NCBI GenBank assembly: GCA_001780285.1
Contig: MFGN01000001.1
Coordinates: forward strand, 22-64,021
Direction: 5' to 3'
Source of the DNA: Candidatus Falkowbacteria bacterium RIFOXYD12_FULL_34_57
GTDB lineage: Bacteria; Patescibacteriota; Patescibacteriia; Patescibacteriales; UBA12075
DNA length: 64,000 nucleotides
Below, piece by piece: positions 4,532 to 35,744 of this stretch. Every line of letters begins with the position of its first letter. The stretch's first letter is position 1. Both the position numbers and the translations under genes were made by a program. The notes beneath the pieces were generated by a model, which worked only from the letters and a program-made list of their open reading frames with translations, did not search any database and had not been told where the DNA came from.

Positions 4532-4618
4532 GTCATTCTGAACGAAGTGAAGAATCTCGTAAATAACGGTAGTCATAATTCAACGAGATTCTTCGTCGCT
4601 ATCGCTTCTCAGAATGAC
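4532..4618. repeat. GTCATTCTGA...TCAGAATGAC hairpin repeat, copy 3 (best preserved)
   Basis: The left arm gtcattctgaacgaagtgaagaatctcg pairs with the right arm cgagattcttcgtcgctatcgcttctcagaatgac. It lies between the dnaK stop and the DUF3467 gene. Confidence 0.85.
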
Positions 4619-20202: not shown

Positions 20203-21168
20203 CTAAGCATTGTTTCTTGTAACTTTTTCCCAAATAACAAGTATTGGGCTAGCTAAAAATATTGAAGAATAAGTACCAATAAATATACCAATTGATAAGG
20301 CTAGCACAAAATCTTTAATTGAATCGCCTCCGAAGAAAAAAATTGCCAATAAAACCAAAATGGTAGTAAAAGATGTATTAATCGAACGGGTAATAGTGTC
20401 ATTAACACTGGTGTTGATTGTTTCCTCAAAGTTATCGTCGCTCTTAGGTAAATTTTCTCGCACCCTATCAAACACCACAATAGTATCATTTACCGAATAC
20501 CCAAGTACGGTAAGAATAGCGGCTACAAAAGGAGCATTAACTTCTATTCCATAAAATCTTCCTAAAACAGCAAAGGCCCCAACAACAATAATCACATCGT
20601 GAAACAGGGCAATAATAGCCGAAATCCCATATTTCCATGAAGCAACCGGCCTAGAAACCTTTCTAAAAGCCCAAGCAATATACAACACAATAACAATCAA
20701 AACTATCACAATCGCTGTTATTGACTTTCTTCTTAATTCTTGTCCAATGGTTGGTCCGACAGCATCATAACGAAGCTCTTCTACATTAGAAGCATCGATT
20801 TCTTTGGTATTCAAGAAGGCCTTCTGATCTGCCTCGCCTTCTGTATCTACTAATCCTCTATCTACTAATCCTCGTAATCTTTTTAATACTTCCTGGTGCT
20901 TATCTTCACTGATATTTTGAAAGCGTAAAATAGTTCCCTGATCACCGACATTTTGTGTAATCAAACTTCCCAAATCAAGATCTTCTACTGCTTTTTGCAC
21001 ATCATTAATGGCTGGTCGTTCATTTTTAAACCGAACCTCCAAAAGACTTCCTCCGGTAAAATCAATACCAAATTTAAGCCCCCATATAAACAAGGCTATT
21101 ATTGAAAGTGCCACTAAAATTGTTGATATCGTAATCCATATCCCTCTTTTTTGTATTATTTGATACAT
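20203..21168 (-). CDS. secF: protein translocase subunit SecF
   Basis: Motifs GIDFTGGSL and VGPTIGQELR, six TM segments, and YSVNDTIVVFDRVREN. Confidence 0.92.
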   Translation of the reverse strand: MYQIIQKRGIWITISTILVALSIIALFIWGLKFGIDFTGGSLLEVRFKNERPAINDVQKAVEDLDLGSLITQNVGDQGTILRFQNISEDKHQEVLKRLRGLVDRGLVDTEGEADQKAFLNTKEIDASNVEELRYDAVGPTIGQELRRKSITAIVIVLIVIVLYIAWAFRKVSRPVASWKYGISAIIALFHDVIIVVGAFAVLGRFYGIEVNAPFVAAILTVLGYSVNDTIVVFDRVRENLPKSDDNFEETINTSVNDTITRSINTSFTTILVLLAIFFFGGDSIKDFVLALSIGIFIGTYSSIFLASPILVIWEKVTRNNA

Positions 21169-21185
21169 AGTATTTTAAACTAAGA

Positions 21186-21209
21186 GCTAAAAGCTAAAAG
21201 CTAAAAGCT
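21186..21209. repeat. tandem heptamer (GCTAAAA)x3 + GCT in the secF leader
   Basis: Three perfect units lie 18 nt upstream of the secF ATG. The same unit recurs at 61841-61873. Confidence 0.9.
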
Positions 21210-21234
21210 GCTGAAATCGCTTGCGCGACATTTA

Positions 21235-22014
21235 TTATTTAATTATTTTTAAAATCTTTTTAGATAAACTCAAACTGGTTGTGGCGATAAATTTGTTTTC
21301 ATCTACCTTTATTTTTTTTGAACCATCAAAACCAATAATTGATCCGCCAGCTTCTGTAATTATTAATTTACCGATAATTGCTTCATGCTTATCATCATCA
21401 TTATTTAAAACACACTCAATTTTACCAGAAGCCAGCAGGCAGTAATCAAGAGTCGGACACCAATTATCCAATATTCTAGATACATTGTTGTCGTATAATT
21501 TTTTTCCAAATTTTTTTCTGGTCTCGGTCATGGTGCTATATCCGGCCACAAGTGCCACAACTGAAGAATCTATATATTTCTTTTTATTAACAATTATTTT
21601 TTTATAATTTCTATAAGCGCCATTCCCGCGCTTAGCATAATATGTTTCATTTAATATTGGGTTATAAACACATGAAAAAATTTCTTCATTATTTTCCATA
21701 AGTCCGATAGCAACCGCAAAATAAGGAATACCAAGTGCAAAACTATTAGTGCCATCCAGAGGATCAATTACAAAAGTATAATTTGAACCATTTTTAAAAC
21801 TTCCTGATTCCTCTGCTAGAATATTATACTTGGGAAAATTTTTATTTAAAATATTTAAAATCTTCTTCTCCGCGTTTATATCTACTTTTGTACAAAAATC
21901 ACCGCTAGTAGTCTTTCTGTGTGTCTTCAGGGCTTTTCCAAAACCATCTCTCGCAATTTTCCCAGCTTCGTGCGCCGCATAAATTATACATTTTTCTCTG
22001 TCGGTCAATAACAT
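21235..22014 (-). CDS. inositol monophosphatase-family phosphatase, paralog 2 (between secD and secF)
   Basis: Motifs FVIDPLDGTNSF and LAEESG. Start moved to MLLTDRE at 22014 because the upstream codons fall inside a hairpin (TGTCTG-TTTGG-CAGACA) just after the secD stop. Confidence 0.85.
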   Translation of the reverse strand: MLLTDREKCIIYAAHEAGKIARDGFGKALKTHRKTTSGDFCTKVDINAEKKILNILNKNFPKYNILAEESGSFKNGSNYTFVIDPLDGTNSFALGIPYFAVAIGLMENNEEIFSCVYNPILNETYYAKRGNGAYRNYKKIIVNKKKYIDSSVVALVAGYSTMTETRKKFGKKLYDNNVSRILDNWCPTLDYCLLASGKIECVLNNDDDKHEAIIGKLIITEAGGSIIGFDGSKKIKVDENKFIATTSLSLSKKILKIIK

Positions 22015-22052
22015 ATTTAAATATATATCTGTCTGCCAAACAGACAAACAAA

Positions 22053-24128
22053 TTATGAATTACGAGACTTCACTCCTATTAACCATTTTTTGTTTTCCAT
22101 CCAGCTGCCGCTCAAAATCTGTAAAAATGTCTTTGTTACTATAATTGCCGAAAACATAGAAATACAAACCCCCAAAAACAAAGTAATCGCAAAACCCTTC
22201 ACTATACTAGTAGAAAACCAAATCAAGATAATACAGGTCAGAAGCGTGGAAACATTTCCATCACGGATTGATGGCCATGCCCGATCAAAAGAATCATTAA
22301 TAGCAAGACTTAATGGCTTGCCGTTCTTAAGCTCTTCTTTCAGTCTTTCAAATATCAAAACATTAGCATCAACCGCCATTCCAATTGAAAGAATAAATCC
22401 GGCAAGTCCGGCAAGTGTAAGCGTTACAGAGAATATTTTAAATATTGCGAGCACTAAAATACCATAAATAGTAAGAGATATTACCGCTATTACCCCAGGA
22501 AGGCGATAAAACAAAACCATAAATAAGGCTACAAGCAGAAGACCCAACAACCCCGCCTTGAGAGATTCGGCCATTGAAGCTTTTCCCAAAGTAGCACCGA
22601 CAGTCTGTTGATTTATAAGTTCAATTGGTACCGGAAGCGCCCCAGCATTCAATCTTTGTGCTAACAGTTTTGCCTCTTTAATGTTAAAACTGCCGGAAAT
22701 TACAGCTCGGCCCCCAGTTATTTTACTGTTTACCGTCGGTATGCTGATTGGATAATTGTCTAAAAATATTGCTACCGGCTTGCCCACATTTCTCTCTGTA
22801 ATTTCTGCAAACATATCTGCTCCCTCTGAATCAAACTCCAAACCAACTTCCGGATTATTGGTGTTTGGATCAAATTGAACCAAGGCACGATCCAGATTCT
22901 TTCCTGTAAGCTCTGTATTCTCCCAATCTTTTTCATCGCCAATAATATCCTTTTCAGTTATTGTCCTAAGGAAAATATGACTAATATTGTATTCTTCTAT
23001 ATCTCTTTCTTCTTGTTTATATATCAAATGATATCCAAATTCGGTTTCTACTATATCAGAAATTGTTCCGTTTCCTTGATTAAAAACAGCATCAGAAAAG
23101 GGCTTTACCATAGAAGCTCTATCAAACCAACCCAAATCTCCCCCACTTGGTCCGCTTGGACCGGTAGAATTTTCCCGAGCCAACTTGGCAAAATTTTGCG
23201 GGTTTGCCTCTGTTTTGAGTTTATTAACCTTTTCCATGGCCTCTTCTTGCGTTAAACCGCTCTCACACGAATCAATTCCTTCATAACAAATTAAAATATG
23301 TGCTGCTTTTATTTCTTTTTCCGTTTCTGCTTCATTGAAGGGGTTGGTTTTCTTTCTTTTTTCGTTAAGCTTGATAATCTCATAACCATTTGATGCTGGT
23401 ACTATATTGTGGGTATATTCACCAGGATTTAAACCCTCTATTTCCTTGATAATATCTGCGTGCTCTTTTTTTGTAATCCATCCAAAATTTCCGCCATTTT
23501 CTTTAGTATTTGTATCATCACTATATTCTTTTGCTAATTCAGCAAAATCGCCACCGGATGATAATTTTTCCAAAATTTCTGCACCCTTTTCATTGGCTTG
23601 TTTGTTTATTTCATTCATCTGCTGTCTTTCCTCTTCTGTTAGTTCGCGCAGTTGTTCTATTTGTTCCTTAAACTCAAGCAATGGAGTCTCTCCAATCATT
23701 TTAATCGCTTCATTCACATCTTTGATTCCGGCAAGTTCGGCAATTACTCGGTACTCTTCTCCGGAAACATTGGTTTGAATATTCGGCTCACTAACTCCAA
23801 ATACATTTACTCTTCGTTCTATTACATCGCGTACCCCCTCCAGGGCGCTGACCTTATCCTTGTCGGCAATATTTGACATATCAGCCTTATAAACCAGGTG
23901 GCTTCCACCCTGTAAATCAAGCCCCAATCTAAAAGGAACTTCTTTTACTTTTGGTAAATTAATAGAGTATCCTGTTTTATTCGCTACCCAAGTCGTTCCT
24001 CGGTTATAATAATCCCCGGCATCAATCAAGCCCCCTATAACTATCAAGATAATTATGAGTAAAAAAATACGCCAAATCTTTCCCCTCTCACTTGGCTGAA
24101 ACAATTTTTGCACTATATTTTCGGACAT
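22053..24128 (-). CDS. secD: protein translocase subunit SecD with two parvulin-like (PpiC) modules inserted in the periplasmic domain
   Basis: SecD motifs GLDLQGGSHLVY, GETPLLEFK, AIFLDNYPISIPTV and a C-terminal 6-TM bundle. The insertion at residues about 155-400 includes AAHILI, GGDLGWF and FGYHLIY. Confidence 0.9.
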   Translation of the reverse strand: MSENIVQKLFQPSERGKIWRIFLLIIILIVIGGLIDAGDYYNRGTTWVANKTGYSINLPKVKEVPFRLGLDLQGGSHLVYKADMSNIADKDKVSALEGVRDVIERRVNVFGVSEPNIQTNVSGEEYRVIAELAGIKDVNEAIKMIGETPLLEFKEQIEQLRELTEEERQQMNEINKQANEKGAEILEKLSSGGDFAELAKEYSDDTNTKENGGNFGWITKKEHADIIKEIEGLNPGEYTHNIVPASNGYEIIKLNEKRKKTNPFNEAETEKEIKAAHILICYEGIDSCESGLTQEEAMEKVNKLKTEANPQNFAKLARENSTGPSGPSGGDLGWFDRASMVKPFSDAVFNQGNGTISDIVETEFGYHLIYKQEERDIEEYNISHIFLRTITEKDIIGDEKDWENTELTGKNLDRALVQFDPNTNNPEVGLEFDSEGADMFAEITERNVGKPVAIFLDNYPISIPTVNSKITGGRAVISGSFNIKEAKLLAQRLNAGALPVPIELINQQTVGATLGKASMAESLKAGLLGLLLVALFMVLFYRLPGVIAVISLTIYGILVLAIFKIFSVTLTLAGLAGFILSIGMAVDANVLIFERLKEELKNGKPLSLAINDSFDRAWPSIRDGNVSTLLTCIILIWFSTSIVKGFAITLFLGVCISMFSAIIVTKTFLQILSGSWMENKKWLIGVKSRNS

Positions 24129-24350
24129 AATAATTTTAACTCAAAATGCAAAATTTTCCACCTGAAGCGGATCAGCCAAAATAATAAATTAATTATTGCC
24201 GGCTGAAAAACCAAAAATTGCAGATTGAATATATTTATATTATAAGTTTTAATTAAAAATAAACAACCTTAAAAAAGGCAGTTATTATAATATATAATAA
24301 ACCATAATAAAATAAAAATCAATTGACAAAACACGAAATATATATCATTT

Positions 24351-24380
24351 AAAAAACCCGTCTTTTAACGGGTTTTTTGT
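24351..24380. terminator. bidirectional intrinsic terminator
   Basis: AACCCGT-CTTTTA-ACGGGTT flanked by A- and T-runs. Confidence 0.75.
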
Positions 24381-24387
24381 TTAAAAC

Positions 24388-24996
24388 TTATAGGGCGCCA
24401 TCTATTACGCTGCCGCCAATTTGTCCACCCAAATCCTGAATAAAACCAAGCGGTTTTTTGTCTCTACGCAATATTGCCGGTCCTAATTTATCTTCGGGCT
24501 TATCTTTGTAAATAATCAAGTTATCCTTTACGATAAACATGCCGGATACCGACCAATCCCTGGTCTTGTTTACCCTTTTAAATCCTAGCCAGTCTTTCCA
24601 AAAAGCTCCGGTACCCTCGGCAATTCTTTCTTGTTCTATGCCTCTTTTTTCAAAAAATATGGTGCGAACTCCACTTGGTGCATTCTTACATTCTTCAAAA
24701 AACTCAGTTCTTACCAAAGGAACTCCATCGGGGCAAATACTCTTCATGGTAGTTATATGTCCAAACCTTTTTATGGTGATATTTTGGATATTAAATCCGA
24801 TTCTTTCTAATTCCTGGACGGTTGTAACACCAGGCTGTACCAAATCATATGCCCTTAACACTTCTTCAAAAGTATTCCACTGAGCTGACATCAGTGTTTC
24901 TTCTGAAGATGGTAAAAGATGCTTGCCACTGCAGCTTACAAGCACTGAAGAGCAAATAAATACAAAAATCATTAAAATCCAAATTCGTTTTTTCAT
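24388..24996 (-). CDS. hypothetical lipoprotein
   Basis: Signal peptide with the lipobox-like LVSCSG and an AAGGAG SD. No assignable domain. Confidence 0.6.
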   Translation of the reverse strand: MKKRIWILMIFVFICSSVLVSCSGKHLLPSSEETLMSAQWNTFEEVLRAYDLVQPGVTTVQELERIGFNIQNITIKRFGHITTMKSICPDGVPLVRTEFFEECKNAPSGVRTIFFEKRGIEQERIAEGTGAFWKDWLGFKRVNKTRDWSVSGMFIVKDNLIIYKDKPEDKLGPAILRRDKKPLGFIQDLGGQIGGSVIDGAL

Positions 24997-25199
24997 AACC
25001 ACTACTCCTTTTTCTTACATTCCTAAGTTTTTTTATTTATATTTTTTTAATTCTAAAATTCAATAAAAATCGAAAGATAATCCGTTAAAATATAAATAAA
25101 GGTTAATAAAAAATTTTAAAACTTTAAAGTACAAATCTATATTTATATACTTCTTAACACATATTTTCAAAGAAGTCAATAACCAAGTAACCGCTTAAA

Positions 25200-25228
25200 T
25201 TGACAAACAAAAACCAAAATGATAAGAT
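25200..25228 (+). promoter_or_regulatory. promoter TTGACA-N17-TGaTAAGAT (extended -10)
   Basis: Read directly from the sequence. A roughly 70-nt leader with hairpin CTCTTA-AAA-TAAGAG and a strong AAGGAGGT SD follows. Confidence 0.6.
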
Positions 25229-25302
25229 TTTTTCAACGCTAACGGCAATCGGGCTGTGGGCGCAAATTCTCTTAAAATAAGAGATTTATAAGGAGGTAGG
25301 CG

Positions 25303-26424
25303 ATGACCAAGGAAAAAATCATTGCGAACCGATCCGAGCTTATAAAAGCTCTGGGGCGTGTAAATGAATTATGTCGAAGATTAGAGGAAGCGGGAATGGT
25401 AATGGATAACGATCTGCAAGCTATTATTGATGACTCTGAACTGTGTACACGGTTTGTGAATTTATTACAAGCAAATAAATCCAAATCATCCCCTAAATCA
25501 CCTATCGTCAGCGACATTTTGTTTAAAGTAGCAAAGGGGATTGAAGCTCTGGAAAAAGAAGGTTTAACATTTAATGACCTGCAAATTCCGATTGATAACC
25601 CTGAAAAAAGAAAAGAGCTGATTAAGCTTTTGCAAAAAAGACACAAAAGTACCCCTTCAGAAAAAAAGTTCATTAAAAAGACAAAGGAAATAAAAATGGA
25701 TAATATAGGCGTGTTAGAAGAACATTCTTTGTGGTATAAGTACAAATCGCAGGTTTGGCTGGAAAAATCAAAACAAAATATCCTTGTACATAACATCATG
25801 AGAATGATTAGGGGAATTCACAATATCAGAGAATTGCATTATTATTCCGCACCAATTACATCCGGCATGGTCTTGTATAAACTTCGCCTTGAAAAACCAG
25901 AAGAAGATATTGGTAAATTAATCAGTCTGGCAATACCCATAAATCAACAAAAAAGCTATAAAAGATTTATGGAATATTGCAGAAAATTAAATTATCCCAG
26001 TATTTTCCCTCCGAGTTTAACTCCAATTAATATTGAAATGGAACAAACCCATTTCCAGGCCCTTTGGCTGAGCGTCATTGCGGAAAAATGCACAGATCAT
26101 CCTCTTGATACGGGATGGGAATTTTCCAACGGAGGCTGTGAAGAATTTGTACATAGCTGGCAGCTGAAGCTCGGCCTTCCTAGACATCCGAATCTTTTAT
26201 TTTTTAATACTAAAGAAGATGAGGAACTGTCCAGAATTAGAATGCGCAATATCAAAACTTATGACCACAAAGGTAATTATATTTCACTAAACGAAGGTTA
26301 CAAAAAAATGGAAAAATCCCTTTCCTGGATCCATGAAAACGGCTTTGAATCTCCAAAAATTGAAAATTGCCTTCATCTCCTGGAATGGACCGGAAATATG
26401 ATAGAAAAAGGATTTTACCAATAA
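25303..26424 (+). CDS. hypothetical two-domain protein; C-terminal half resembles the DUF4406 / nucleoside 2-deoxyribosyltransferase-like fold
   Basis: YYSAPITSG, YPSIFPP, LDTGWEFSNGGCEEFVHSWQLKLGLP resembles the (Y)ISGPITG...gW..S.Ga..E pattern. The N-terminal roughly 170 aa are unassigned. Confidence 0.55.
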   Translation: MTKEKIIANRSELIKALGRVNELCRRLEEAGMVMDNDLQAIIDDSELCTRFVNLLQANKSKSSPKSPIVSDILFKVAKGIEALEKEGLTFNDLQIPIDNPEKRKELIKLLQKRHKSTPSEKKFIKKTKEIKMDNIGVLEEHSLWYKYKSQVWLEKSKQNILVHNIMRMIRGIHNIRELHYYSAPITSGMVLYKLRLEKPEEDIGKLISLAIPINQQKSYKRFMEYCRKLNYPSIFPPSLTPINIEMEQTHFQALWLSVIAEKCTDHPLDTGWEFSNGGCEEFVHSWQLKLGLPRHPNLLFFNTKEDEELSRIRMRNIKTYDHKGNYISLNEGYKKMEKSLSWIHENGFESPKIENCLHLLEWTGNMIEKGFYQ

Positions 26425-26654
26425 TGCCTGAAGTATTCAAAGTATATCCAGGTTTTAATAAAAAAAAATTAAAAATTATAACCTTTTACGCCAAAGGCGG
26501 AAAAGAAAATCTGGAAGAATTAAGAGCTCTTGTTTACAAATATAAAAACAAAAATATCGGCATAAAAATGATAGGCAAAATAAGTATAATGAGCCATTTC
26601 GGCGAATTATTAATGATAAACAAAATACCATCCATACTTATCAAAACGAATTAA
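26424..26654 (+). CDS. hypothetical small protein (76 aa), thioredoxin-fold-like without CxxC
   Basis: Its ATG overlaps the upstream stop (TAATG). The pattern KIITFYAK...IPSILI looks beta-alpha-beta. The track start at 26367 would overlap the upstream CDS. Confidence 0.4.
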   Translation: MPEVFKVYPGFNKKKLKIITFYAKGGKENLEELRALVYKYKNKNIGIKMIGKISIMSHFGELLMINKIPSILIKTN

Positions 26655-26686
26655 AAAAAACAGAATCAAAAATGATTCTGTTTTTT
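26653..26686. terminator. bidirectional intrinsic terminator
   Basis: CAGAATC-N6-GATTCTG flanked by A8 and T6. Confidence 0.75.
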
Positions 26687-26745
26687 AATTTTATCTTTAA
26701 TGTTTTTATTTTGATTCAAATTTCTAATACAAAATTTCTTTATAA

Positions 26746-27210
26746 TCATTTTCCTTCTTCAAAATAAATTGCAGTATCTCTCTTTAGTGCGTCTAGGCAT
26801 TTCTGTAATCTTATACTTAATTTCTCACTTAATAGTGGTAACGCTTCGGAAATTTTCATAAATCTATATTCGATAATTTCTTTTCCGTCCAATCTAATCT
26901 TCTTAACCTCTCCTTCATTTAATCTTCCGCCAAAGAAAATGAATTGTAAACTTTCTCCTTTTTCGTCAATATTTGATGTGTACCCAACACATAAAAATCT
27001 TACCTCTTCTAAATTTATTCCAATTTCCTCTTTTACTTCTCTGATACACGCACCCCCGGGAGATTCATTTTTATCAACAACCCCGCCAACTATTGACCAG
27101 TGATTCTTATAACTAGGTTTTACAATAAGAATTTCATCATTTTCGTTCAAAATCAAGGCTCCGACACCCATTCGCTTTTTTGGTAAATTTTTATAATATT
27201 CACTGCTCAT
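26746..27210 (-). CDS. NUDIX hydrolase
   Basis: Nudix box GGVVDKNESPGGACIREVKEEIGI. Confidence 0.85.
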   Translation of the reverse strand: MSSEYYKNLPKKRMGVGALILNENDEILIVKPSYKNHWSIVGGVVDKNESPGGACIREVKEEIGINLEEVRFLCVGYTSNIDEKGESLQFIFFGGRLNEGEVKKIRLDGKEIIEYRFMKISEALPLLSEKLSIRLQKCLDALKRDTAIYFEEGK

Positions 27211-27235
27211 ATATTTTAATTTTCTTTATTGTGGG

Positions 27236-30025
27236 TTATTTTCCGCAACATTTCTTATATTTTTTTCCGGATCCACACGGACAAGAATCATTTCTTCCCA
27301 CCTTGATACCGTCTTCGTTTTTTAATTTTTTAGCTACCATATCTCTGGCGTTATTATCTTTAAGTCCTCCATCCATTGGTCCTGCGCCACTGGGCATTCC
27401 CGTTAATCCGGCAGGCAGGCCCGAGAAGGAAGATGTTCCTTTTTCCATTGTTTTTTGCGGTGCACTGAAACTGCTTATCCTGTCCGCAAGGCCAGGAGCC
27501 GCAAAACGGTGCATCTGCTCTTCGGCGGTAATTCCCAATTTATACACACCGTAAACAACTTCTTTTTGTATTAAACTATTAAGTTCGTTAAATAATCGAA
27601 ATGCCTCTTTTTTATATTCAACTAATGGGTCCCTCTGTCCATACCCCCGAAGACCTATCCCTTGACGCACAGAAGACATAGCTTCCAGATGCTCAATCCA
27701 CAAAGTATCAATAGAGCGAATCAAAATAGATTTTTCAATTTCCTTCCAATCTAAACCAATCTCCTCGGCTCTTTCTTTTATCTTCTTATACTTCCCCTTA
27801 GACAAATCCACTAGATACTCAATGATTTGGGTACGTGCCTTTGCTTTATCAAGTTTTCCGTTTTCGGCATATTGGTCCAAATTTTCTTTTATTTTTTCCT
27901 CTACTGTAAAAATGGTTGACACCACTTCTCTAATTTCCTCCAAATTCCAATCGGATATTTTATCTTGAGAAGTATGAAAACCAACCACTTGTTCAATTTC
28001 ATTTTCTACCATTCCCAACACAATATCAGATAAATCATCTTTTTCTTCCCGATTGTCTGCTTTATAAATAATATCAAACCTCTTTTTATAAATCGTTTCC
28101 CGATGCTTATTGATTACATCATCATATTCCACTAAGTGTTTTCGGATATCAAAATTATTTCCTTCCACCTTGGTTTGCGCTGATTCAATTGATTTGGATA
28201 TCAGCTTATTTTCAATCGGCATATCCTCCGGAACCCGGAGAGTGGTCATAATACTTTTCATGCGATCCCCGCCGAAAATCCGCATCAAGTCATCTTCGGC
28301 AGACACGAAAAACTGCGAAGATCCTGGATCGCCCATACGACCGGCGCGCCCGCGAAGCTGATTGTCAATTCGCCTGGACTCATGGCGTTCTGTGCCGATT
28401 ACATGTAGACCACCCAGTTCTAGTACTCTTTTCTGCTCCTCCTTGTTAACCGGATCTCCCCCTAGAATAATGTCCACTCCCCGACCAGCCATATTGGTGG
28501 CAATAGTAATCACACCCGGTTTTCCGGCCTGTGCAATCATCTTTGCTTCTTTTTCATGGTTTTTAGCGTTCAAAACCTGCGGCTGTAACCCATTTTGCTC
28601 CATAAATCGCGCTAAAAGCTCATTTTTTTCAATGGATACTGTACCAATTAAAACTGGTTGTCCTTTTTCATGTCTTTCTTTAACATTCTGAATAATTGCT
28701 TTGAATTTTCCAATTTCAGATTTATATATTAAATCATTGAAATCTTTTCTAATGTTTGGTTTGTGCGTGGGAATAATCACGGTTTCCAAATTATAAATCT
28801 TAGAAAATTCCTCGGCTTCAGTTGCTGCTGTTCCAGTCATACCAGCAAGTTTTTCGTACATTCTAAAATAATTTTGAAAAGTAATGGTAGCGAGTGTCTC
28901 TGATTCTCTTTGTATCTTTACACCCTCCTTGGCTTCAATAGCCTGATGCAAACCCTCACTATAGCGCCTGCCATGCATTAGTCTTCCCGTAAATTCATCA
29001 ACAATTATTACCTCTCCATCCTTAACTACATAATCCCGATCATATTTAAAAAGAACCTGCGCCTTTAAGGCTTGCTCTATGTGATGTACTTCCCGCACCC
29101 CTCCGGTAGTATAGATATTATCAACACCTAGCCATTTTTCCATTTTTGATATTCCCTCATCGGTTAGGGTGGCCGCTCTCATTTTTTCATCAATATTATA
29201 ATCTTCATTTTCCTTAAGCCTTCCCACTAGTTGCATGAATTTATTATACTTATCAGTGGATTCTTCTGCTGGCGCGCTAATAATCAAGGGGGTACGAGCT
29301 TCATCAATCAAAATAGAATCAACCTCATCCACAATCGCATAATACAATTTTCTTTGAGCCATTTTCTCTAAACTTGGCACCATATTGTCGCGCAAATAAT
29401 CAAAACCGAATTCATTGTTAGTGCCGTATAAAATATCGCAGGCGTAAGCTTCTTTTCTGGAAACAGGTCGAAAATGCTTTAATCTTTTATCATACTGAGA
29501 ATCATCTATAAATTCCGGATCATACTGCAAAGCGGAGTCATGAATCAAAACTCCGGTAGTAAGCCCCAATAGGTGATAAACCGGTGCCATCCATCCGGCG
29601 CCTACGCGCGCCAAATAATCGTTTACTGTAATTAGTTGCACCCCCTCGCCGGTTAAAGCATTTAAATAAAGCGGCGTGGTGGCCACCAAGGTTTTTCCCT
29701 CCCCCGTCTTCATTTCCGCGATCTGTCCGCGATGCAAAACTATCCCACCAATCAGCTGTACATCATAATGGCGTTGTCCCAAGACTCTTTTCGCGGCCTC
29801 TCTTACAGACGCAAAGGCTTCCGGCAATATTTCATCCAAGATTTCCCCTCTCTTATCTGTGTTATTTTTTAATTTTTCCTGCCATTTTCTGGTTTTTTCT
29901 TTCAACTCCTCATCTTTTAACTTCTCCAAACCTTCTTCAAAACTATTAATTTTGTCAATTACGGTCTGCATAGACTTCACAATCTTCTCATTTGGATCTC
30001 CGAATATTTTACTTAAAAATTTCAT
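27236..30025 (-). CDS. secA: preprotein translocase ATPase SecA
   Basis: Motifs MKTGEGKTLV, DEVDSILIDEARTPLIIS and TNMAGRGVDI, plus the C-terminal zinc motif CPCGSGKKYKKCCG. Confidence 0.98.
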   Translation of the reverse strand: MKFLSKIFGDPNEKIVKSMQTVIDKINSFEEGLEKLKDEELKEKTRKWQEKLKNNTDKRGEILDEILPEAFASVREAAKRVLGQRHYDVQLIGGIVLHRGQIAEMKTGEGKTLVATTPLYLNALTGEGVQLITVNDYLARVGAGWMAPVYHLLGLTTGVLIHDSALQYDPEFIDDSQYDKRLKHFRPVSRKEAYACDILYGTNNEFGFDYLRDNMVPSLEKMAQRKLYYAIVDEVDSILIDEARTPLIISAPAEESTDKYNKFMQLVGRLKENEDYNIDEKMRAATLTDEGISKMEKWLGVDNIYTTGGVREVHHIEQALKAQVLFKYDRDYVVKDGEVIIVDEFTGRLMHGRRYSEGLHQAIEAKEGVKIQRESETLATITFQNYFRMYEKLAGMTGTAATEAEEFSKIYNLETVIIPTHKPNIRKDFNDLIYKSEIGKFKAIIQNVKERHEKGQPVLIGTVSIEKNELLARFMEQNGLQPQVLNAKNHEKEAKMIAQAGKPGVITIATNMAGRGVDIILGGDPVNKEEQKRVLELGGLHVIGTERHESRRIDNQLRGRAGRMGDPGSSQFFVSAEDDLMRIFGGDRMKSIMTTLRVPEDMPIENKLISKSIESAQTKVEGNNFDIRKHLVEYDDVINKHRETIYKKRFDIIYKADNREEKDDLSDIVLGMVENEIEQVVGFHTSQDKISDWNLEEIREVVSTIFTVEEKIKENLDQYAENGKLDKAKARTQIIEYLVDLSKGKYKKIKERAEEIGLDWKEIEKSILIRSIDTLWIEHLEAMSSVRQGIGLRGYGQRDPLVEYKKEAFRLFNELNSLIQKEVVYGVYKLGITAEEQMHRFAAPGLADRISSFSAPQKTMEKGTSSFSGLPAGLTGMPSGAGPMDGGLKDNNARDMVAKKLKNEDGIKVGRNDSCPCGSGKKYKKCCGK

Positions 30026-30080
30026 AAACTTCTCATAACTCGTAACGCATAGCTCATAACAAGCACTTTTGTTATTATGG

Positions 30081-30163
30081 GTATCAACGAAAAATCTTAT
30101 TAAAACGCGCTAACTAATCCTAATTTCAAGAGAGTCTTCGTCTTTTTCGCTCCCCAGAATAAC
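30081..30163. repeat. degenerate copy of the GTCATTCTGA hairpin repeat (right arm recognisable)
   Basis: gagtcttcgtctttttcgctccccagaataac aligns with the right arm of copy 2. The left arm has decayed. Confidence 0.5.
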
Positions 30164-30194
30164 ATCAGAGAGTAATACGCAACGAATAAAATAC

Positions 30195-30215
30195 TAAAAA
30201 ACACGCAAAAGCGTG
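30195..30215 (-). terminator. intrinsic terminator after the hpf-methyltransferase pair
   Basis: Minus strand CACGC-TTTT-GCGTG followed by TTTTTT. Confidence 0.65.
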
Positions 30216-30318
30216 AATATTAAGTTATGTCTGCATTATAAATCGTTTTTAGCTAAAAATCAAGGCTGAATTATTTTAACAAAACAGCGTTCACATACAT
30301 TAATAATATCAGTATTTA

Positions 30319-31002
30319 CTATAATTTTTGCATATAAACAACCCAAAAATTTCTTTTATAACTTTGTCCTTGAAATTTTGTATAACTTGATTTTTTGTCT
30401 AATTTTAAAATCTTAAAATTTTTTCCGTATAACACATAAACATCTTCTTTGGTAAATACTCGTTCTACAAAACCTGTCTCCGGCATAATATAGGTATTTT
30501 TTTCTTTTCCTGGAAATTCTTTTAATAATTTTTTAGCGTTCTTGTCTCCCTCCAGGCGTAGTGTCCGCAGTCCCAGATAGCCGCCCAGTTTTAATACTCT
30601 GGAGATTTCTTTCAAATATATTTCTCTCTCTTTATCATTTAAGGCATTAGAAGAAGTAAAATCTATTATTACATCAAAACTATTGTCTTCCCAATTATAT
30701 TTCTCTCCTATGTTCTCCACTGCATACTTTACTACTAAATTTTCTTTTTGAGCTCTATTTTTGGCGATTTTAATCGCTGTCGGAGAAATATCCATACCGC
30801 TCACTTCCGCCCCAAGGGAAGCTAAATAATTTGCATTTCTCCCGGTGCCACATCCTAGATCTAAAACTTTCAAATTATCAAAACCTACTCCTTCTTTTTT
30901 TAAAAACCGAAAAAACCGCAATGCAAAAGATTGCGGTTTATTGCTCTTAGTAACTAGTTTGGAATCTTGGTATTCACACTCCCAATAATTAACTGAATTC
31001 AT
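30319..31002 (-). CDS. class I SAM-dependent methyltransferase
   Basis: Motif I VLDLGCGTGRNANYL. There is a 4-nt overlap with hpf. Confidence 0.85.
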   Translation of the reverse strand: MNSVNYWECEYQDSKLVTKSNKPQSFALRFFRFLKKEGVGFDNLKVLDLGCGTGRNANYLASLGAEVSGMDISPTAIKIAKNRAQKENLVVKYAVENIGEKYNWEDNSFDVIIDFTSSNALNDKEREIYLKEISRVLKLGGYLGLRTLRLEGDKNAKKLLKEFPGKEKNTYIMPETGFVERVFTKEDVYVLYGKNFKILKLDKKSSYTKFQGQSYKRNFWVVYMQKL

Positions 31003-31325
31003 TTTTGTTTTCTCTTTGCATCTTGAATTTTTTCTTTGTACTTTTTTACAGATCTGGCTAAATGGTCTTTTACTTTATCAATAGCCTTGAATAAATCTTT
31101 TTCCGTCTTTTCTACACGAAGCATCTCTCTTGGCACTTGCAGGTTTACCTCCGCCCTATAAACATCTCCTGATTTTTGACTAGGAAGAGTCTTTTCGATC
31201 TCTACATCACAATGCAAAACCTGCACATCACCCAAATATTTATCAAGCATATTCATTTTGAGCTGAACATAATCATTGATCTTGGGTGTTAATTTAATTT
31301 TCGTTCCTTTGATCTTAATTTTCAT
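30999..31325 (-). CDS. hpf: ribosome hibernation promoting factor (short HPF/RaiA type)
   Basis: The pattern I.G..I.LT..I..YV..K...L.KY is followed by RAEVNLQVP and AIDKVKDHLARSVKKYKEK. Confidence 0.85.
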   Translation of the reverse strand: MKIKIKGTKIKLTPKINDYVQLKMNMLDKYLGDVQVLHCDVEIEKTLPSQKSGDVYRAEVNLQVPREMLRVEKTEKDLFKAIDKVKDHLARSVKKYKEKIQDAKRKQK

Positions 31326-31408
31326 ATATTTGTATTATTTAACATTTTTATATTTAATTTAATTAATATATAAATAAATTAACCATAACTCATGCAAACA
31401 TTTTATTT

Positions 31409-32575
31409 TTAAAAAAGACTCAAAAATGCATGCCAAAGCGACACGAATTTATCTCCATATCTAGCTATATCTTTGAAGGTGACAAATACCACCAAAATCA
31501 TCAAAAGCACAAAACCAATATAATGAACCATTGCCTCTACTTCTTTTTTTACCGGACCCCCTTTAAATTTCTCAATAATCAAAAATAATATTCTTCCTCC
31601 ATCCAACGCCGGAAAAGGAAGCGCGTTAATAATCGCCAAATTCATAGAAAGAATTGCGGTAAACTGTAAAAAATAAACAAATCCCATGCGAGCAAATTGT
31701 CCGGTTAAAACCGCTATCCCAACAGGTCCTGAAATATCCGCGCCCACCCCCGCTCCCATTATCAAACCTTTAATCATTTCATAAAAAGCAAAAAGTATAG
31801 CTAAAATAAAAATAATAGTGGTCTTGATTCCGTACCAAATAGCCAAATGAACCGGATACTTAACTAAACCAATATCAGCCATACCAATCCCAATTCCGGG
31901 AAGCCCGGTTTCTTCCATTATTTCCGGCACTATCTTTTTTTCTATTTCCACATTTCCCCTGCGGATTATTAAACTTAACTCTTGCCCATCTTTTTCTTTT
32001 ATATAATTTTGAAATTCTTCGCTAACATTAATTTTCTGTGTATCAACAGATACAATCATGTCCCCCATTCTAATATCAGCATCTTTAGCAGGCGTTTCTT
32101 TGACCACTGCCACTATTTGAATCTGCCTATTACTGATTTTAGCATGACTACTAACGCCCTCAATCCCCTGCGGAAGTCCGACCATAAAACCAAAAGAGAT
32201 CAAGATAGCGGCTAAAACCACATTCATTGAAACTCCGGCAAGAAGTATCATAGCCCTCTGCCAAATGGGCTTGCTGTTAAAATGATTAGGATTTCCGCCC
32301 GCCTCATCGTCTTCTCCTAGCTTTACAAACCCTCCAAGAGGCACCCAATTAACAGAATAAATGGTATCATCAGCGTCTTTCACGCTCTTGTTGCCTTTTA
32401 CCTTTTTCCATTTGCCATTTTTATCCCTATAAACACCAAATGCTCTAGGTGGCAAACCAAAACCAAATTCTTCCGGCTTTAGATCAAATTTCTTTGCCAT
32501 CCAAAAATGCCCAAATTCATGCACGAACACCAAAATAGATAAAAGAAAAACAAATGATATAATTGTTATAAACAT
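31409..32575 (-). CDS. rseP: RIP metalloprotease RseP (site-2 protease, M50, with PDZ)
   Basis: HEFGHFWMAK and a PDZ-like ADIRMGDMIVSV, plus the C-terminal NLAIINALPFPALDGG. Start moved to 32575 because the track N-terminus translates a tandem repeat. Confidence 0.9.
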   Translation of the reverse strand: MFITIISFVFLLSILVFVHEFGHFWMAKKFDLKPEEFGFGLPPRAFGVYRDKNGKWKKVKGNKSVKDADDTIYSVNWVPLGGFVKLGEDDEAGGNPNHFNSKPIWQRAMILLAGVSMNVVLAAILISFGFMVGLPQGIEGVSSHAKISNRQIQIVAVVKETPAKDADIRMGDMIVSVDTQKINVSEEFQNYIKEKDGQELSLIIRRGNVEIEKKIVPEIMEETGLPGIGIGMADIGLVKYPVHLAIWYGIKTTIIFILAILFAFYEMIKGLIMGAGVGADISGPVGIAVLTGQFARMGFVYFLQFTAILSMNLAIINALPFPALDGGRILFLIIEKFKGGPVKKEVEAMVHYIGFVLLMILVVFVTFKDIARYGDKFVSLWHAFLSLF

Positions 32576-32579
32576 AATA

Positions 32580-32613
32580 AAAATGCAAAAATCAAAATGC
32601 AAAAATCAAAATG
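32580..32613. repeat. tandem 14-mer (AAAATGCAAAAATC)x2 + partial, in the rseP leader
   Basis: Read directly from the sequence. It begins 5 nt upstream of the rseP ATG. Confidence 0.8.
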
Positions 32614-32649
32614 ACTTTAAACTTTTCAATCAGCAATAATTTACTTAAT

Positions 32650-32685
32650 ATTCTTAAATATCACAAAATTCTTAAATATCACAAA
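32650..32685. repeat. perfect tandem 18-mer (ATTCTTAAATATCACAAA)x2
   Basis: Read directly from the sequence, in the frr-rseP intergenic region. Confidence 0.85.
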
Positions 32686-32788
32686 GCGATTCCGGACTTT
32701 TAACTTTTCAGTCATTAATTAAAATAATGAATAATTAATCCGCCCCGTTATGCCCGCCTTGGGCTGATGGCGGAATAAGTTTTGAACT

Positions 32789-33343
32789 TTAAATCGTCAT
32801 TATCTCCGCTTCTTTTTTTTCTCTTATTTCCTTTATTTCATTATTACGCTTTGTAATCTCCTCATCTAACTCCTTGATATACTTAAATTTTTCATCCTCT
32901 GTTACGGCTTTTTCTTTTTCTTCTTGCTCTATTTTAGTTTTAATTTCATCTCTTATCTGTCTAAAAGAAATTCTGGCTTGTTCGTATTTTTCGTTCAATT
33001 TTTTTACCAGATCTTTGCGATTTTCTTCAGTCATTCTAGGAACTGTCACCCTAATCTGCCCCCCCTCATTTACCACACTAACTCCGAGATCGGCTTCAAT
33101 AATCGCTTTTTCTATCTCTTTTATTATATTCTTGTCCCACGGGGCAATGGTAATACTTTGCCCGTCAGCCACATTAATAGCAGCCACCCCATTAAGCGGC
33201 GTTCTCACGCCATAAGCACTGACAACTACCGCATCAAATATATTTGGATTTGCTCTACCGGTTCTAAGTGAACCGATTTCTTTTTTGAAAAATTCAATAG
33301 TTTTTTCAAATTCCCCCTTTTTAGCTTCAATATATTGGTTCAT
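32789..33343 (-). CDS. frr: ribosome recycling factor
   Basis: Motifs LRTGRANPNIFD, ITIAPWDKN and RISFRQIRDE. Start moved to MNQYIEAKK at 33343. Confidence 0.93.
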   Translation of the reverse strand: MNQYIEAKKGEFEKTIEFFKKEIGSLRTGRANPNIFDAVVVSAYGVRTPLNGVAAINVADGQSITIAPWDKNIIKEIEKAIIEADLGVSVVNEGGQIRVTVPRMTEENRKDLVKKLNEKYEQARISFRQIRDEIKTKIEQEEKEKAVTEDEKFKYIKELDEEITKRNNEIKEIREKKEAEIMTI

Positions 33344-33420
33344 ATGATTTAAACATTTTAATATTAATAATTTATTATATAAATTTGCATAATACAAATT
33401 CATTATATTCGTATTATTAT

Positions 33421-34500
33421 TTATTTTTTCTCAAAACCTTTTACCCCCATATATATAATGTTGGGGTCTGTTGGGTCGATCAGGAGCGCCCATCCGGCTT
33501 TAGTTGTTGGCAGTTTCTTAGTAGCCCAATTTTGTCCGCCATCTTGAGATCTAAAAAATGTGGTATTGGTAACATAGTATATTTCATTCGGATTCTTTTC
33601 ATTTATAGCTATGGCGTTAATAGTGGCTTTTTTCTCGGGTGGAATTAATTCAATTTTTTCCCAATTATTTCCGCCATCGCTTGATTTAATCAAACCATAG
33701 AAAGTAGCTACGAAAATTTTTTCTTCTTCTGATTTCGTAACCACAAAATCCTTGATATCGTTTGATAATTTTAATTCCTTCATTTTATCTTGCAAACTAT
33801 TAAATTCTTCCCAATTTTCTCCTCCGTCAATTGTTTTAAAAACCTGAGTACTGGTAACCACATACATCTTTCTGCTGTCATTTGGATTAATAATCATCTT
33901 TTGAACACCCCCCTTAATCCTGGTGATGGTTTGCCAATCCTGTCCACCATTACTGCTCTTTACTACATCCCCCCGAGATATAAGAATATAAACATTGGAA
34001 CTGTTATACTGGTCAACAACAACATGAACAACTTTCGCGGCCACATCATTGTCATAATAAACCTGCGACCAACTACGATTACAATCTGTTGATTTATACA
34101 ACCTGTTTCCAATCGCCGCATAAATGGTACACTTAAAACTCGGATCAATAGCTATTGATTTGATAGTAGCTTGAATTAGTTTGCCCGCAGGCTGCCAACC
34201 CTCTCCTCCATTATAAGAGTAAAGCAATCCATTTGCTTCACTGCCAAAATATACGGCTTTTTCGTCACTGGGATCAATAATCATTGATGATACACTCATT
34301 CCGGCAAAACTACCCGGTTTGCCCGATGTGGTTGGAATTAAAACCTTTTGCTGCCAGGTATCCCCTTTATTAAAAGTTTTAAAAATTCCCCCATCAACAT
34401 TGGATGTGTCTTTGGTGGATTTAACACTAACACATCCGCTCGTTACAAATAAAATACTAATTAATAAGAACAAGAATGAAATTTTTTTTATTTGGTGCAT
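33421..34500 (-). CDS. BNR/Asp-box repeat beta-propeller lipoprotein (Ycf48/sialidase-like fold)
   Basis: Lipobox VTSGC. About seven S-x-D-G-G-x-x-W-type repeats (SNGGQDWQ, IDGGENWE, SDGGNNWE, QDGGQNWA and others). Confidence 0.75.
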   Translation of the reverse strand: MHQIKKISFLFLLISILFVTSGCVSVKSTKDTSNVDGGIFKTFNKGDTWQQKVLIPTTSGKPGSFAGMSVSSMIIDPSDEKAVYFGSEANGLLYSYNGGEGWQPAGKLIQATIKSIAIDPSFKCTIYAAIGNRLYKSTDCNRSWSQVYYDNDVAAKVVHVVVDQYNSSNVYILISRGDVVKSSNGGQDWQTITRIKGGVQKMIINPNDSRKMYVVTSTQVFKTIDGGENWEEFNSLQDKMKELKLSNDIKDFVVTKSEEEKIFVATFYGLIKSSDGGNNWEKIELIPPEKKATINAIAINEKNPNEIYYVTNTTFFRSQDGGQNWATKKLPTTKAGWALLIDPTDPNIIYMGVKGFEKK

Positions 34501-34580
34501 ATGTTTTTAAAAGTATATTGCGCGCCCCTATTCCAACAAGGGAAGGTGGGAAGCATGTCAAATGCGTTATTTTAGTATTT

Positions 34581-35633
34581 TTAAATAATATTTATAGCAA
34601 TATTCTCCAGTACCAATCTGGGATTTACATTAGCACTCAAGGCCTCCAAACCGTCCTTGATGCTTTGATTTAATTTTAAAATTCTTTTACTGGACAAATT
34701 AATAGTTTGAATACGCGACAAAAATACCTCGTTCTGAGTAATACTTCCGCATCCGCAGTCAAAAAGCAGCATATCTCGAATAGCCCCATTCCAAACTTGC
34801 AATATATCAAACGCTAAACTGGCCAAATTTTGTCCAACCGTTTTATTTGGTAACAATTCACTTATAGCCAACATGCGATTATTTATGTCTTGGTGGAAAA
34901 AATTGAAAAAAATGTCTACTTTCTTCTCATGGGCGCTTAAAGCATCTGCGTCTTCCATTAACTTAACTGCTAGCCTTGGTCGTCCTATACAAATTCTGGA
35001 AAATTTTTTAGCATCATCGCGCGTCGCATGACACTTATGAAACAAATAATCATAAATATCCGCTTGTTTTACTAATTTAAAATTTAAAATTTGACTGCGG
35101 GACAAAATGGTTTTTGGTAAACTATCAATATCATGTGTTACTAAAATTAATATGGTATTTTTTTTGGGTTCTTCCAGTGTTTTCAAAAGCGCATTTAATG
35201 CTTTTTCACTCAACTTTTCGGCTATATTAATAATTCCAACTTTATAAAAGCCCCCGAACGAACTCATGTTTAATTTGGTGATAAAATCCCTGACTTGTTC
35301 TATTGATATATTTTTCTTATCTTCTTCTCTGGAAAGCACAAAAAAATCCCCATGTCCGTCTATTTGCCCGTTTCTTAAAATATTACAAGAGGCACAAGCC
35401 CCGCAAGGAAAATCTTTTTCACCACTGTGTACATTTTGGCATAATAAACTCTTGGCAAAATAAACAGCAGCATTAAACTTGCCAAGATATTCGGGACCTG
35501 CAAAAATATATGTTCCTTGAATGCGCTGATTGTCTTGTTTATCGGCGGGCTGATTGACGCTTTTTTCTAAAAAATCAGTAATGGGGATATTACCAATAAT
35601 CGGCCAATCAGGCTTGAATCTTTCTTTTTTCAT
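34581..35633 (-). CDS. holB: DNA polymerase III subunit delta' (HolB)
   Basis: YIFAGPEYLGK (degenerate P-loop), zinc module CGACASC, and KTLEEP...ILVT sensor motifs. Confidence 0.8.
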   Translation of the reverse strand: MKKERFKPDWPIIGNIPITDFLEKSVNQPADKQDNQRIQGTYIFAGPEYLGKFNAAVYFAKSLLCQNVHSGEKDFPCGACASCNILRNGQIDGHGDFFVLSREEDKKNISIEQVRDFITKLNMSSFGGFYKVGIINIAEKLSEKALNALLKTLEEPKKNTILILVTHDIDSLPKTILSRSQILNFKLVKQADIYDYLFHKCHATRDDAKKFSRICIGRPRLAVKLMEDADALSAHEKKVDIFFNFFHQDINNRMLAISELLPNKTVGQNLASLAFDILQVWNGAIRDMLLFDCGCGSITQNEVFLSRIQTINLSSKRILKLNQSIKDGLEALSANVNPRLVLENIAINII

Positions 35634-35639
35634 GGTTAA

Positions 35640-35668
35640 ATTATAACATTATAGATATTATTTTGCAA
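35640..35668 (-). promoter_or_regulatory. promoter TTGCAA-N17-TATAAT placed 6 nt from the holB ATG (leaderless architecture)
   Basis: Sense strand reads TTGCAAAATAATATCTATAATGTTATAAT-TTAACC-ATG. No SD is present. Confidence 0.55.
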
Positions 35669-35678
35669 TTATTTTGCA
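35657..35678. repeat. perfect tandem 11-mer (ATTATTTTGCA)x2
   Basis: Read directly from the sequence. It overlaps the holB -35 region. Confidence 0.8.
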
Positions 35679-35689
35679 ATTTTTTATGT

Positions 35690-35722
35690 AAAAAGACAGT
35701 AAATTGATTACTGTCTTTTGTT
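35690..35722 (-). terminator. hairpin terminator after lon
   Basis: AGACAGTAA-N5-TTACTGTCT. The U-run is short on the minus strand and strong on the plus strand. Confidence 0.5.
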
Positions 35723-35744
35723 TTTCTCTGCACATCGGCAGATT

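Follow-up and report, generated by a model that had tools for sequence, protein, structure and literature searches.

A putative NDT-clan N-glycosidase with an orphan N-terminal extension and a rare micro-protein partner in a Candidatus Falkowbacteria genome

The known enzymes with which the gene considered here can be compared are nucleoside 2-deoxyribosyltransferase (NDT) and human DNPH1 (Rcl), in which a motif glutamate is the known nucleophile. DNPH1, a 5-hydroxymethyl-dUMP N-hydrolase, is a stand-alone enzyme of nucleotide sanitising or salvage. ADP-ribosyl cyclases and NADases belong to the same structural clan, and the DUF4406 family (PF14359) is assigned to the NDT clan as well. Bacteria of the Candidate Phyla Radiation (CPR) and DPANN archaea generally lack de novo nucleotide synthesis, and how they handle scavenged nucleotides is only partly known. 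Here we describe a two-gene operon in a 64,000-nucleotide stretch of Candidatus Falkowbacteria bacterium RIFOXYD12_FULL_34_57 DNA (contig MFGN01000001.1, positions 22 to 64,021; called the window below, and all coordinates are positions within it). The operon consists of a long open reading frame, ORF A, and a short one, ORF B.

Our preferred interpretation, drawn from computational analysis and given a probability of roughly 0.5, is that ORF A encodes a stand-alone N-glycosidase of the NDT clan that functions in nucleotide or nucleoside salvage or in sanitation of the nucleotide pool. In the proposed mechanism, the loop Y180-x-S-x-P-I-T-S-G188 behind the first strand would hold the sugar or phosphate, and Glu281, at the start of a helix in the motif S275-x-G277-x-x-x-E281, would attack C1'. 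This would cleave the N-glycosidic bond in the substrate, a nucleoside or a (deoxy)nucleoside 5'-monophosphate, and the base would be released, or possibly exchanged, along with (deoxy)ribose 5-phosphate. Such an enzyme could serve the salvage or removal of unwanted nucleotides where de novo synthesis is absent.

The ORF A family and its relation to DUF4406

A homology search with ORF A returned 36 homologs of about 220-266 amino acids (aa) that covered 51-66% of the protein. These align to residues ~132-373 only, with 41-55% identity and a family unit of ~243 aa, and those bearing a source name were from Parcubacteria-group bacteria. Proteins identical to those of the operon are on record from Candidatus Falkowbacteria metagenome-assembled genomes (MAGs; RIFOXYB2_FULL_34_18 and relatives), in which they are labelled hypothetical. 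The family alignment contained 22 invariant and 35 nearly invariant columns, with the conserved blocks SLWYKYK..VW, VHNIMR.LR, Y.S.PITSG, WEQ.HFQALWLSIIAEKC, GWE.SNG..EE..H..QL.LG.P, FFNTKE.E...R.RM.NI and a C-terminal GFYQ. The key motifs are the loop given above, present in ORF A as YYSAPITSG (residues 179-188), and G271-W-E-x-S275-x-G277-x-x-x-E281, present as GWEFSNGGCEE (residues 271-281). Therefore, the motifs quoted in an earlier note on this DNA, YYSAPITSG and GWEFSNGGCEEF, are indeed present and lie within the most conserved columns of the family. Among the invariant residues of ORF A are W272, S275, G277 and E281, and also the aromatic or polar residues W255, H284, Q287, N302 and R313, which lie outside the NDT motif.

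Members in Genome Taxonomy Database (GTDB) genomes, with 36-56% identity, were found in Falkowbacteria, Staskawiczbacteria, Levyibacteriota, Saccharibacteria and four Woesearchaeota (DPANN archaea), and distant forms of 296-322 aa were found in Buchananbacteria and another Woesearchaeote. The archaeal members are at loci L015, L016, L018, L019 and L023; four of them are 36-45% identical to ORF A, and the distant one at L023 is 26% identical. Across the sampled genomes and contigs, the subfamily occurs essentially in CPR and DPANN organisms alone, and its presence in both CPR bacteria and Woesearchaeota points to transfer between the domains among ultra-small symbionts. Family members are also carried by MAGs labelled 'uncultured Gammaproteobacteria' (L007, L011, L022), labels that may reflect mis-binning. 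The loci of the distant forms in Buchananbacteria (L021, L024) and in L022 have a common downstream gene starting MKKLLKNK…, and L021 and L022 also have a common upstream gene of ~295-299 aa (…LILPFDHRSSFS…).

The AlphaFold2 (AF2) model of residues 132-373 had a predicted local distance difference test (pLDDT) score above 90. It consists of short parallel strands (179-182, 232-233, 265-268 and 318-320) that alternate with helices, with helical additions at both ends.

The relation of this domain to DUF4406 was evaluated through more distant relatives. An exhaustive profile search yielded 882 cluster representatives at E <= 0.001; of these, 345 reached E <= 1e-10 and 37 reached E <= 1e-30. In an alignment of 118 of the more distant representatives, the invariant residues were the G of PITSG, a P, a W, and the G and E of G-x-x-x-E. 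PF14359 was matched by 56 of these 118 (E <= 0.01). When ten representatives were scanned singly against the gathering cut-off of 22 bits, P0143 (named 'DUF4406 domain-containing protein' by NCBI) scored 32.5 bits and P0093 scored 22.4 bits, with most of the others slightly below the cut-off. The alignments of the subfamily and of the wider family matched each other in hhalign with a probability of 100.

A phage protein annotated 'nucleoside deoxyribosyltransferase', gp54 of Mycobacterium phage ZoeJ, matches PF14359 with an E-value of 3e-26. In the hhalign and hmmsearch alignments, its segment KCSHVVMLSGWEDSRGASLEH aligns with the family consensus kCte.hM..GWEySNG.sEE..H, and the GWEFSNGGCEE region of ORF A aligns with the ZoeJ segment SGWEDSRGASLE. 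Against the DUF4406 domain of gp54, hhalign gave the subfamily a probability of 55 and the wider family one of 81, the latter over 78 columns. A Foldseek comparison with the viral models of BFVD placed NDT, DUF4406 or BlsM-like proteins in more than 12 of the top 40 matches, with probabilities up to 0.99 and root-mean-square deviations of 2.6-4.4 Å over 108-121 columns. These matches also included MazZ-type proteins, which are named only for their dATP/dGTP-diphosphohydrolase N-terminal domain.

Taken together, these results indicate that residues 132-373 of ORF A very probably represent a diverged, enlarged branch of DUF4406 with an NDT-clan fold. The family is related to DUF4406 by a transitive link, and its placement in the NDT clan follows from the clan assignment of DUF4406 together with the fold matches and the motif. 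Thus, of the DUF4406/NDT-like C-terminal domain that had been proposed, the relationship stands by way of the profiles, ZoeJ gp54 and BFVD, but ORF A itself is below every Pfam threshold: there was no Pfam match to the full protein at E <= 1, or to residues 132-373 at E <= 10, and hence none reaching the PF14359 cut-off.

In the AF2 model and the alignment, the putative catalytic segment S275-N-G277-G-C-E-E281 lies behind strand 265-268 and opens the helix 276-290, and the Glu of G-x-x-x-E was invariant in 155 sequences of very low identity. The corresponding segments of human DNPH1 (S-L-G-V-G-Y-E) and L. leichmannii NDT (D-V-G-L-G-M-E) have a spacing equal to that of the ORF A motif. These two sequences were compared with PDB chains, and both matched. 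One PDB chain, 8qhq, has a Gln at the position of the motif Glu, which fits the role of this Glu as the known nucleophile.

A number of observations weigh against ORF A being such an enzyme. The protein had no usable match in Pfam, NCBIfam, PADLOC or PHROGs (none at E <= 10 in Pfam or NCBIfam), and literature searches gave no DUF4406 member with a tested function. The E-values of the BFVD matches were marginal (0.03-1), and in the Foldseek search of PDB the 50 best matches included neither an NDT nor a DNPH1 chain, and no match at all had an E-value below 0.1. Comparison of the family profiles by hhalign with single DNPH1, NDT and PF15891 sequences gave no signal, and E281 would be equivalent to the catalytic Glu of DNPH1 and NDT on the basis of motif spacing and not of a superposition. 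Genes of nucleotide metabolism were neighbours at about 8-9 of ~24 independent loci compared to roughly 6 expected, itself a rough estimate, and ORF B was found at only 3 of about 26 independent loci. Searches of PDB sequences with the subfamily and wider-family profiles, the N-terminal domain, the ORF B profile and the ZoeJ DUF4406 domain gave chance-level results.

The N-terminal extension and the micro-protein

The first 131 residues of ORF A are absent from the homologs: at all 20 other loci examined, the family members start a few residues before LE..SLWYKYK. The extension is composed of two helical repeats of ~30 residues (LEEAGMVMDNDLQAIIDDSELCTRFVNLLQ and LEKEGLTF-NDLQIPIDNPEKRKELIKLLQ) followed by a Lys-rich linker. 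The Smith-Waterman score between the repeats was 48, compared to 21.7 +/- 3.9 in shuffled sequences, and 0 of 2000 shuffles reached 48. The AF2 model of this part contained helices of low confidence (pLDDT 41-63). Relatives of the extension were absent from the protein searches, 35 fetched loci, the 64-kb window and the Joint Genome Institute (JGI) metagenomes, in keeping with the novel N-terminal domain described in the earlier note. Scans of the extension against Pfam, NCBIfam, PADLOC and PHROGs likewise gave nothing usable. Small ORFs upstream of homologs at L001 and L004 were considered as relatives and rejected, having no resemblance to it.

Whether these residues belong to the functional protein was evaluated from several features of the gene. 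The extension looks translated, judging by its own strong Shine-Dalgarno sequence (SD) and ATG (25290-25305) right behind the promoter and leader, its open frame and its coding-like base composition: an open frame of 131 codons would arise by chance with a probability of 1.7e-5 in DNA this rich in AT, and the guanine-plus-cytosine (GC) content is 0.36, as in the rest of the gene, compared to 0.19 in the intergenic DNA. The significant internal repeat is in line with this. It is therefore unlikely, in our estimation, that the active enzyme starts at M132 and that the upstream frame is evolutionarily young and perhaps without function, read through from what used to be intergenic DNA or a small gene, although the SD-like AAGGA 7 nt before the ATG of M132 is located precisely at the start of the homologs, and the lack of homologs anywhere searched and the low AF2 confidence would fit such a view. 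Two read-level variants of the same population in run SRR3989339, P0001 and P0002, have lost 17 and 87 residues in frame, either inside the extension or across its boundary. The 17-residue deletion is in the Lys-rich linker, and the 87-residue deletion (residues 59-145) removes the conserved SLWYK start. Both deletions are flanked by short direct repeats, and they may be genuine variation in the population or may have arisen in assembly. The existence of such variants would favour a dispensable extension, but the deletions preserve the frame. The extension was gained in this genome only. Because the ancestral SD and start codon persist at M132, it most likely arose by a recent 5' extension or fusion, and the persistence of these signals means that a short isoform may also be made by dual initiation.

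ORF B was found to belong to a very small family. In a set of 5.8 billion proteins, the sole matches were the window protein itself and one of 73 aa at locus L010 of another Falkowbacteria MAG, which has 39-40% identity, its own SD, and a start 10 nt downstream of its partner gene. The closely syntenic sister genome represented by L009 lacks ORF B. A third member (E 1.5e-9) was detected by a hidden Markov model search of six-frame translations of the fetched loci; it is located at 4329-4541 (-) of L034, is 40% identical over 52 residues, and is convergent with the homolog P0032 (3530-4285), 44 nt from its stop codon. A pattern scan of metagenomes for ORF B gave nothing. At L034, the convergent genes are separated by a GC-rich hairpin, and there is a gene for a Y1 transposase at a distance of about 2 kb.

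In all three occurrences, ORF B adjoins the enzyme gene, across a rearrangement and a partner divergence of 42-50%. Therefore, the small ORF, which had been put forward from the window only, is a genuine gene that is conserved and is linked to ORF A. Its occurrence at 3 of ~26 loci implies that it is dispensable for the enzyme. In the window, ORF A and ORF B would be co-transcribed and translationally coupled, and ORF B is probably an accessory subunit or modulator of the enzyme, because the adjacency persists even after inversion in another genome.

The conserved positions of ORF B are PG, LRAL, G..SI.[ST]H, [DE][IL]L and IPS, with no conserved Cys, and the window protein contains no Cys. An AF2 model based on two sequences suggested a beta-alpha-beta-alpha-beta arrangement, with a pLDDT of 71.8, and only one of five models was confident. 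Foldseek matched this model to assorted Rossmann-like and STAS folds, with a thiol-disulfide oxidoreductase at rank 31 and a probability of 0.21. There was no match to ORF B in Pfam, NCBIfam, PADLOC or PDB sequences, and none of use in PHROGs. Given the lack of a profile match, the absence of Cys and the generic model, a thioredoxin or glutaredoxin fold for ORF B, as in the Cys-less thioredoxin-fold mini-protein of the earlier note, was not supported.

Locus anatomy and expression signals

The features of the locus are given in Table 1. The promoter, GC-richer leader, hairpin, SD, the two ORFs with their TAATG overlap, and the terminator shared with the convergent NUDIX gene were all located where they had been reported, and the same applies to the strand inversion and the preceding 300 bp of non-coding DNA.

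Table 1. Positions of the operon, its signals and its flanking genes in the 64,000-nucleotide window.
Feature	Position	Strand	Remarks
SecD homolog	22053-24128	-	Inserted PpiC-type rotamase domains
Divergent upstream gene	24388-25002	-	204 aa; lipoprotein-type signal (…FICSSVLVSCSG)
Non-coding DNA	25003-25302		300 bp, precedes operon
Sigma-70-type promoter (putative)	25200..25228	+	Function inferred from position only
-35 element	25200-25205	+	TTGACA; 17-nt spacer to -10
TG extension	25220-25221	+
-10 element	25223-25228	+	TAAGAT; extended -10 TGaTAAGAT
5' leader	25229..25302	+	Two small hairpins and SD AAGGAGGT
SD of ORF A	25290-25297	+	AAGGAGGT; 5 nt ahead of ATG 25303
ORF A	25303-26424	+	373 aa
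N-terminal extension	25303..25695	+	Residues 1-131
SD-like AAGGA	25684-25688	+	7-nt gap to ATG of M132
ATG of M132	25696-25698	+
Predicted catalytic domain	25696..26424	+	Residues 132-373
ORF A stop TAA	26422-26424	+	TAATG overlap with ORF B
ORF B ATG	26424-26426	+	TAATG overlap with ORF A
ORF B	26424-26654	+	76 aa
Intrinsic-terminator-like hairpin	26655..26686	bidirectional	A-run, 14-bp stem, T-run; between ORF B and NUDIX gene, common to both
NUDIX hydrolase gene	26746-27210	-	Convergent; Pfam NUDIX E 5.5e-20

The promoter site matched the consensus at 10 of 12 positions, in addition to having the TG extension, and was the top-scoring site in the scanned region (24800-27400). This region contained 11 promoter-like sites compared to 11.1 expected from shuffled sequences, which is no excess, and so the case for the promoter is one of position and not of statistics. 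The leader has a GC content of 0.43, compared to 0.19 in the 197 bp of intergenic DNA upstream, and its predicted fold of -19.8 kcal/mol was not significant (z = -1.64; 14 of 200 shuffles were as stable). An Rfam scan of the leader and the surrounding 12 kb gave nothing at the gathering score; the leader had just two chance-level snoRNA matches on the wrong strand (E = 3-6). It was found in no other genome, and a tRNA scan detected no tRNA near the operon. The suggestion that the leader is regulatory was therefore not borne out, there being no Rfam match and only ordinary stability.

The operon is the sole plus-strand coding sequence within 20203-38039. Its neighbours in the minus-strand block encode SecD, SecF, SecA, RseP-like and HPF-like proteins, all of a housekeeping type. 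The SecD homolog appears to be an unusual fusion; its rotamase domains are the Pfam domains Rotamase, Rotamase_2 and Rotamase_3 listed for an identical gene at L025. The divergent upstream gene had no family match in any library. The convergent NUDIX protein was generic among NCBIfam models, with a weak resemblance to NAD diphosphatase and NadM-Nudix models, and it matched the PADLOC candidate model PDC-S07. Co-occurrence of the NUDIX gene with the pair in other genomes, which had been raised as a possible association, is not conserved: no NUDIX gene is beside any other family member, the adjacency is in this genome only, and a functional link was not supported.

Elsewhere, the contexts of the family are of a housekeeping type, except for two phage-like loci of a short divergent branch. 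A Pfam scan of 90 flanking ORFs at 15 loci found no recurrent partner. Besides the genes considered in the next section, nucleotide-related neighbours were NT5C, phosphoribosyltransferases (PRTases) and a weak DeoC match. On a rough estimate, nucleotide and NAD neighbours are not clearly above chance, with the exception of one tight operon (L029), and a general enrichment of nucleotide-metabolism neighbours was dropped as statistically unsupported.

Alternative interpretations, significance and comparison with known systems

A variant of the N-glycosidase explanation at the level of the substrate is that the enzyme is specific for pyridine nucleotides, acting on nicotinamide mononucleotide (NMN), nicotinate mononucleotide (NaMN) or NAD as a glycohydrolase or in base exchange and feeding PncB-NadD-NadE salvage. 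We regard this as doubtful, despite a contiguous operon at L029 (1-3232, identical at L030) in which the homolog P0005 is the last gene after NadE, a nicotinate phosphoribosyltransferase (NAPRTase) and a PF15891 Nuc_deoxyri_tr2 protein, with gene ends that abut or overlap and with a helix-turn-helix (HTH) gene and an Apt-like PRTase following. In the Falkowbacteria loci L009 and L010, moreover, the gene directly downstream encodes glutamine-dependent NadE joined to a cytidylyltransferase-like (NadD-type) domain, and the resemblance of the NUDIX neighbour to NAD-related models and the presence of ADP-ribosyl cyclases and NADases in the clan point in the same direction. However, NAD genes are near in only two independent lineages of ~24 (the chance probability of about 0.005 for this is rough and a posteriori, having been made after the data were seen), no NAD gene is beside the operon in the window, and elsewhere the genes are those of purine and pyrimidine metabolism (Apt-like PRTase, NT5C, DHFR, ThyA). 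The L029/L030 operon thus brings two different NDT-clan proteins together in one NAD-salvage operon.

It is very unlikely, in our judgement, that the pair is a conflict module in which ORF A is a nucleotide-depleting or signal-degrading effector and ORF B its immunity or regulatory partner, a role akin to the defence context that had been raised. Conflict systems do include NDT-like and SLOG folds, phages commonly carry DUF4406, ORF B is tiny and patchily distributed, and the operon stands as an insert on the opposite strand that has a promoter and a terminator of its own. Two homologs of a short AT-rich branch, P0035 and P0038 (220-224 aa; L004/L005 and L036), are in phage-like contexts with many small overlapping ORFs, where the neighbours are HNH, sigma-70 region 4 and DUF7788 genes, or DHFR with thymidylate synthase (ThyA). 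In contrast, neither ORF A nor ORF B had a PADLOC match, the neighbouring genes here and at the other loci are of a housekeeping type without a recurrent partner, and the CPR subfamily had no relatives in an IMG/VR scan. Furthermore, 23 of ~26 loci lack ORF B, which argues that the enzyme is not toxic without it, and the high, uniform conservation across phyla resembles that of a metabolic enzyme. Equally improbable is that the domain binds a nucleotide or ligand without catalysis, as a sensor or regulator, and uses the N-terminal repeats as an output or interaction module. A binding pocket could be built from the numerous invariant residues, aromatic and polar, that lie beyond the NDT motif, the N-terminal domain is helical and repeat-like, and the literature searches gave no enzymatic function for DUF4406 members, but the invariance of the motif Glu is that expected of a catalytic residue, all other family members lack an output domain, and Pfam scans detected no DNA-binding or signalling domain in ORF A.

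Returning to the N-glycosidase interpretation, the family is a candidate for a salvage or sanitation step in that it is well conserved (36-55% identity between ORF A and relatives in several CPR phyla and in Woesearchaeota), is missed by standard models and bears a signature of the DNPH1/NDT type. It would also open, for the first time, a way into the function of the large DUF4406 group. A more specific scenario, which we offer as speculative and unlikely, is that a CPR/DPANN-restricted enzyme cleaves or exchanges the base of a host-scavenged pyridine or purine/pyrimidine mononucleotide, that it works in some lineages as a two-component enzyme with ORF B, and that the N-terminal domain, arisen de novo, retargets or regulates it here. 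If true, the enzyme would fill a gap in the pathways by which ultra-small symbionts scavenge nucleotides or NAD. The locus also shows a gene that has gained a new N-terminal domain while the old start signals stay, and it reveals a very rare micro-protein that adjoins the enzyme gene in all three genomes in which it was found. The fold and motif are already known in kind; what is new is the enlarged subfamily undetected by models, the orphan N-terminal domain and the rare partner. The overall interest is moderate and not transformative.

In comparison with known systems, the similarity to PF14359 is seen in the first strand, which reads Y-x-[AS]-x-P-[IM]-T-[S]-G in the family and VVYIAGPMTG in ZoeJ gp54, and in the block KC..v.M..GWE.S.G...E...A..LG that is common to both. 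Thus, counterparts of the PF14359 motifs Y-x-A-G-P-M-T-G and G-W-E-x-S-x-G-A-x-x-E are present in ORF A. The ORF A domain, however, has 242 residues compared to about 91 in the Pfam model (a ~2.5-fold enlargement). The family adds ~45 N-terminal helical residues (SLWYKYK..VHNIMR.LR), a helical insertion of ~45 residues behind the first strand, the subfamily-specific segment FFNTKE...R.RM.NI, and a C-terminal helical hairpin of ~55 residues ending in GFYQ. PF14359 proteins are mostly in phages, whereas the ORF A family is in CPR and DPANN genomes.

The NDT of Lactobacillus leichmannii (PDB 1f8x/1f8y; PF05014) would be of the same proposed fold class, and in its DVGLGME segment the Glu is six residues past the polar residue and four past the Gly. 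The polar residue of NDT is Asp, compared to Ser in ORF A, for which transferase activity is not implied, and neither NDT nor Nuc_deoxyri_tr2 (PF15891) has sequence-level similarity to ORF A. DNPH1 (2'-deoxynucleoside 5'-phosphate N-hydrolase; PDB 4p5e, 9i3q, 4fyh) likewise differs in having no sequence-profile similarity and in being absent from the top Foldseek PDB matches, and ORF A is much larger, with other decorations. The likeness to DNPH1 is in SLGVGYE compared to SNGGCEE of ORF A, and in the Ser/Thr/Gly-rich loop behind a Tyr-containing first strand, LYFCGSIRGG compared to YYSAPITSG. The Ser (not Asp) at the first motif position, together with this Ser/Thr/Gly loop, would place ORF A nearer to the nucleotide hydrolases than to the nucleoside transferases.

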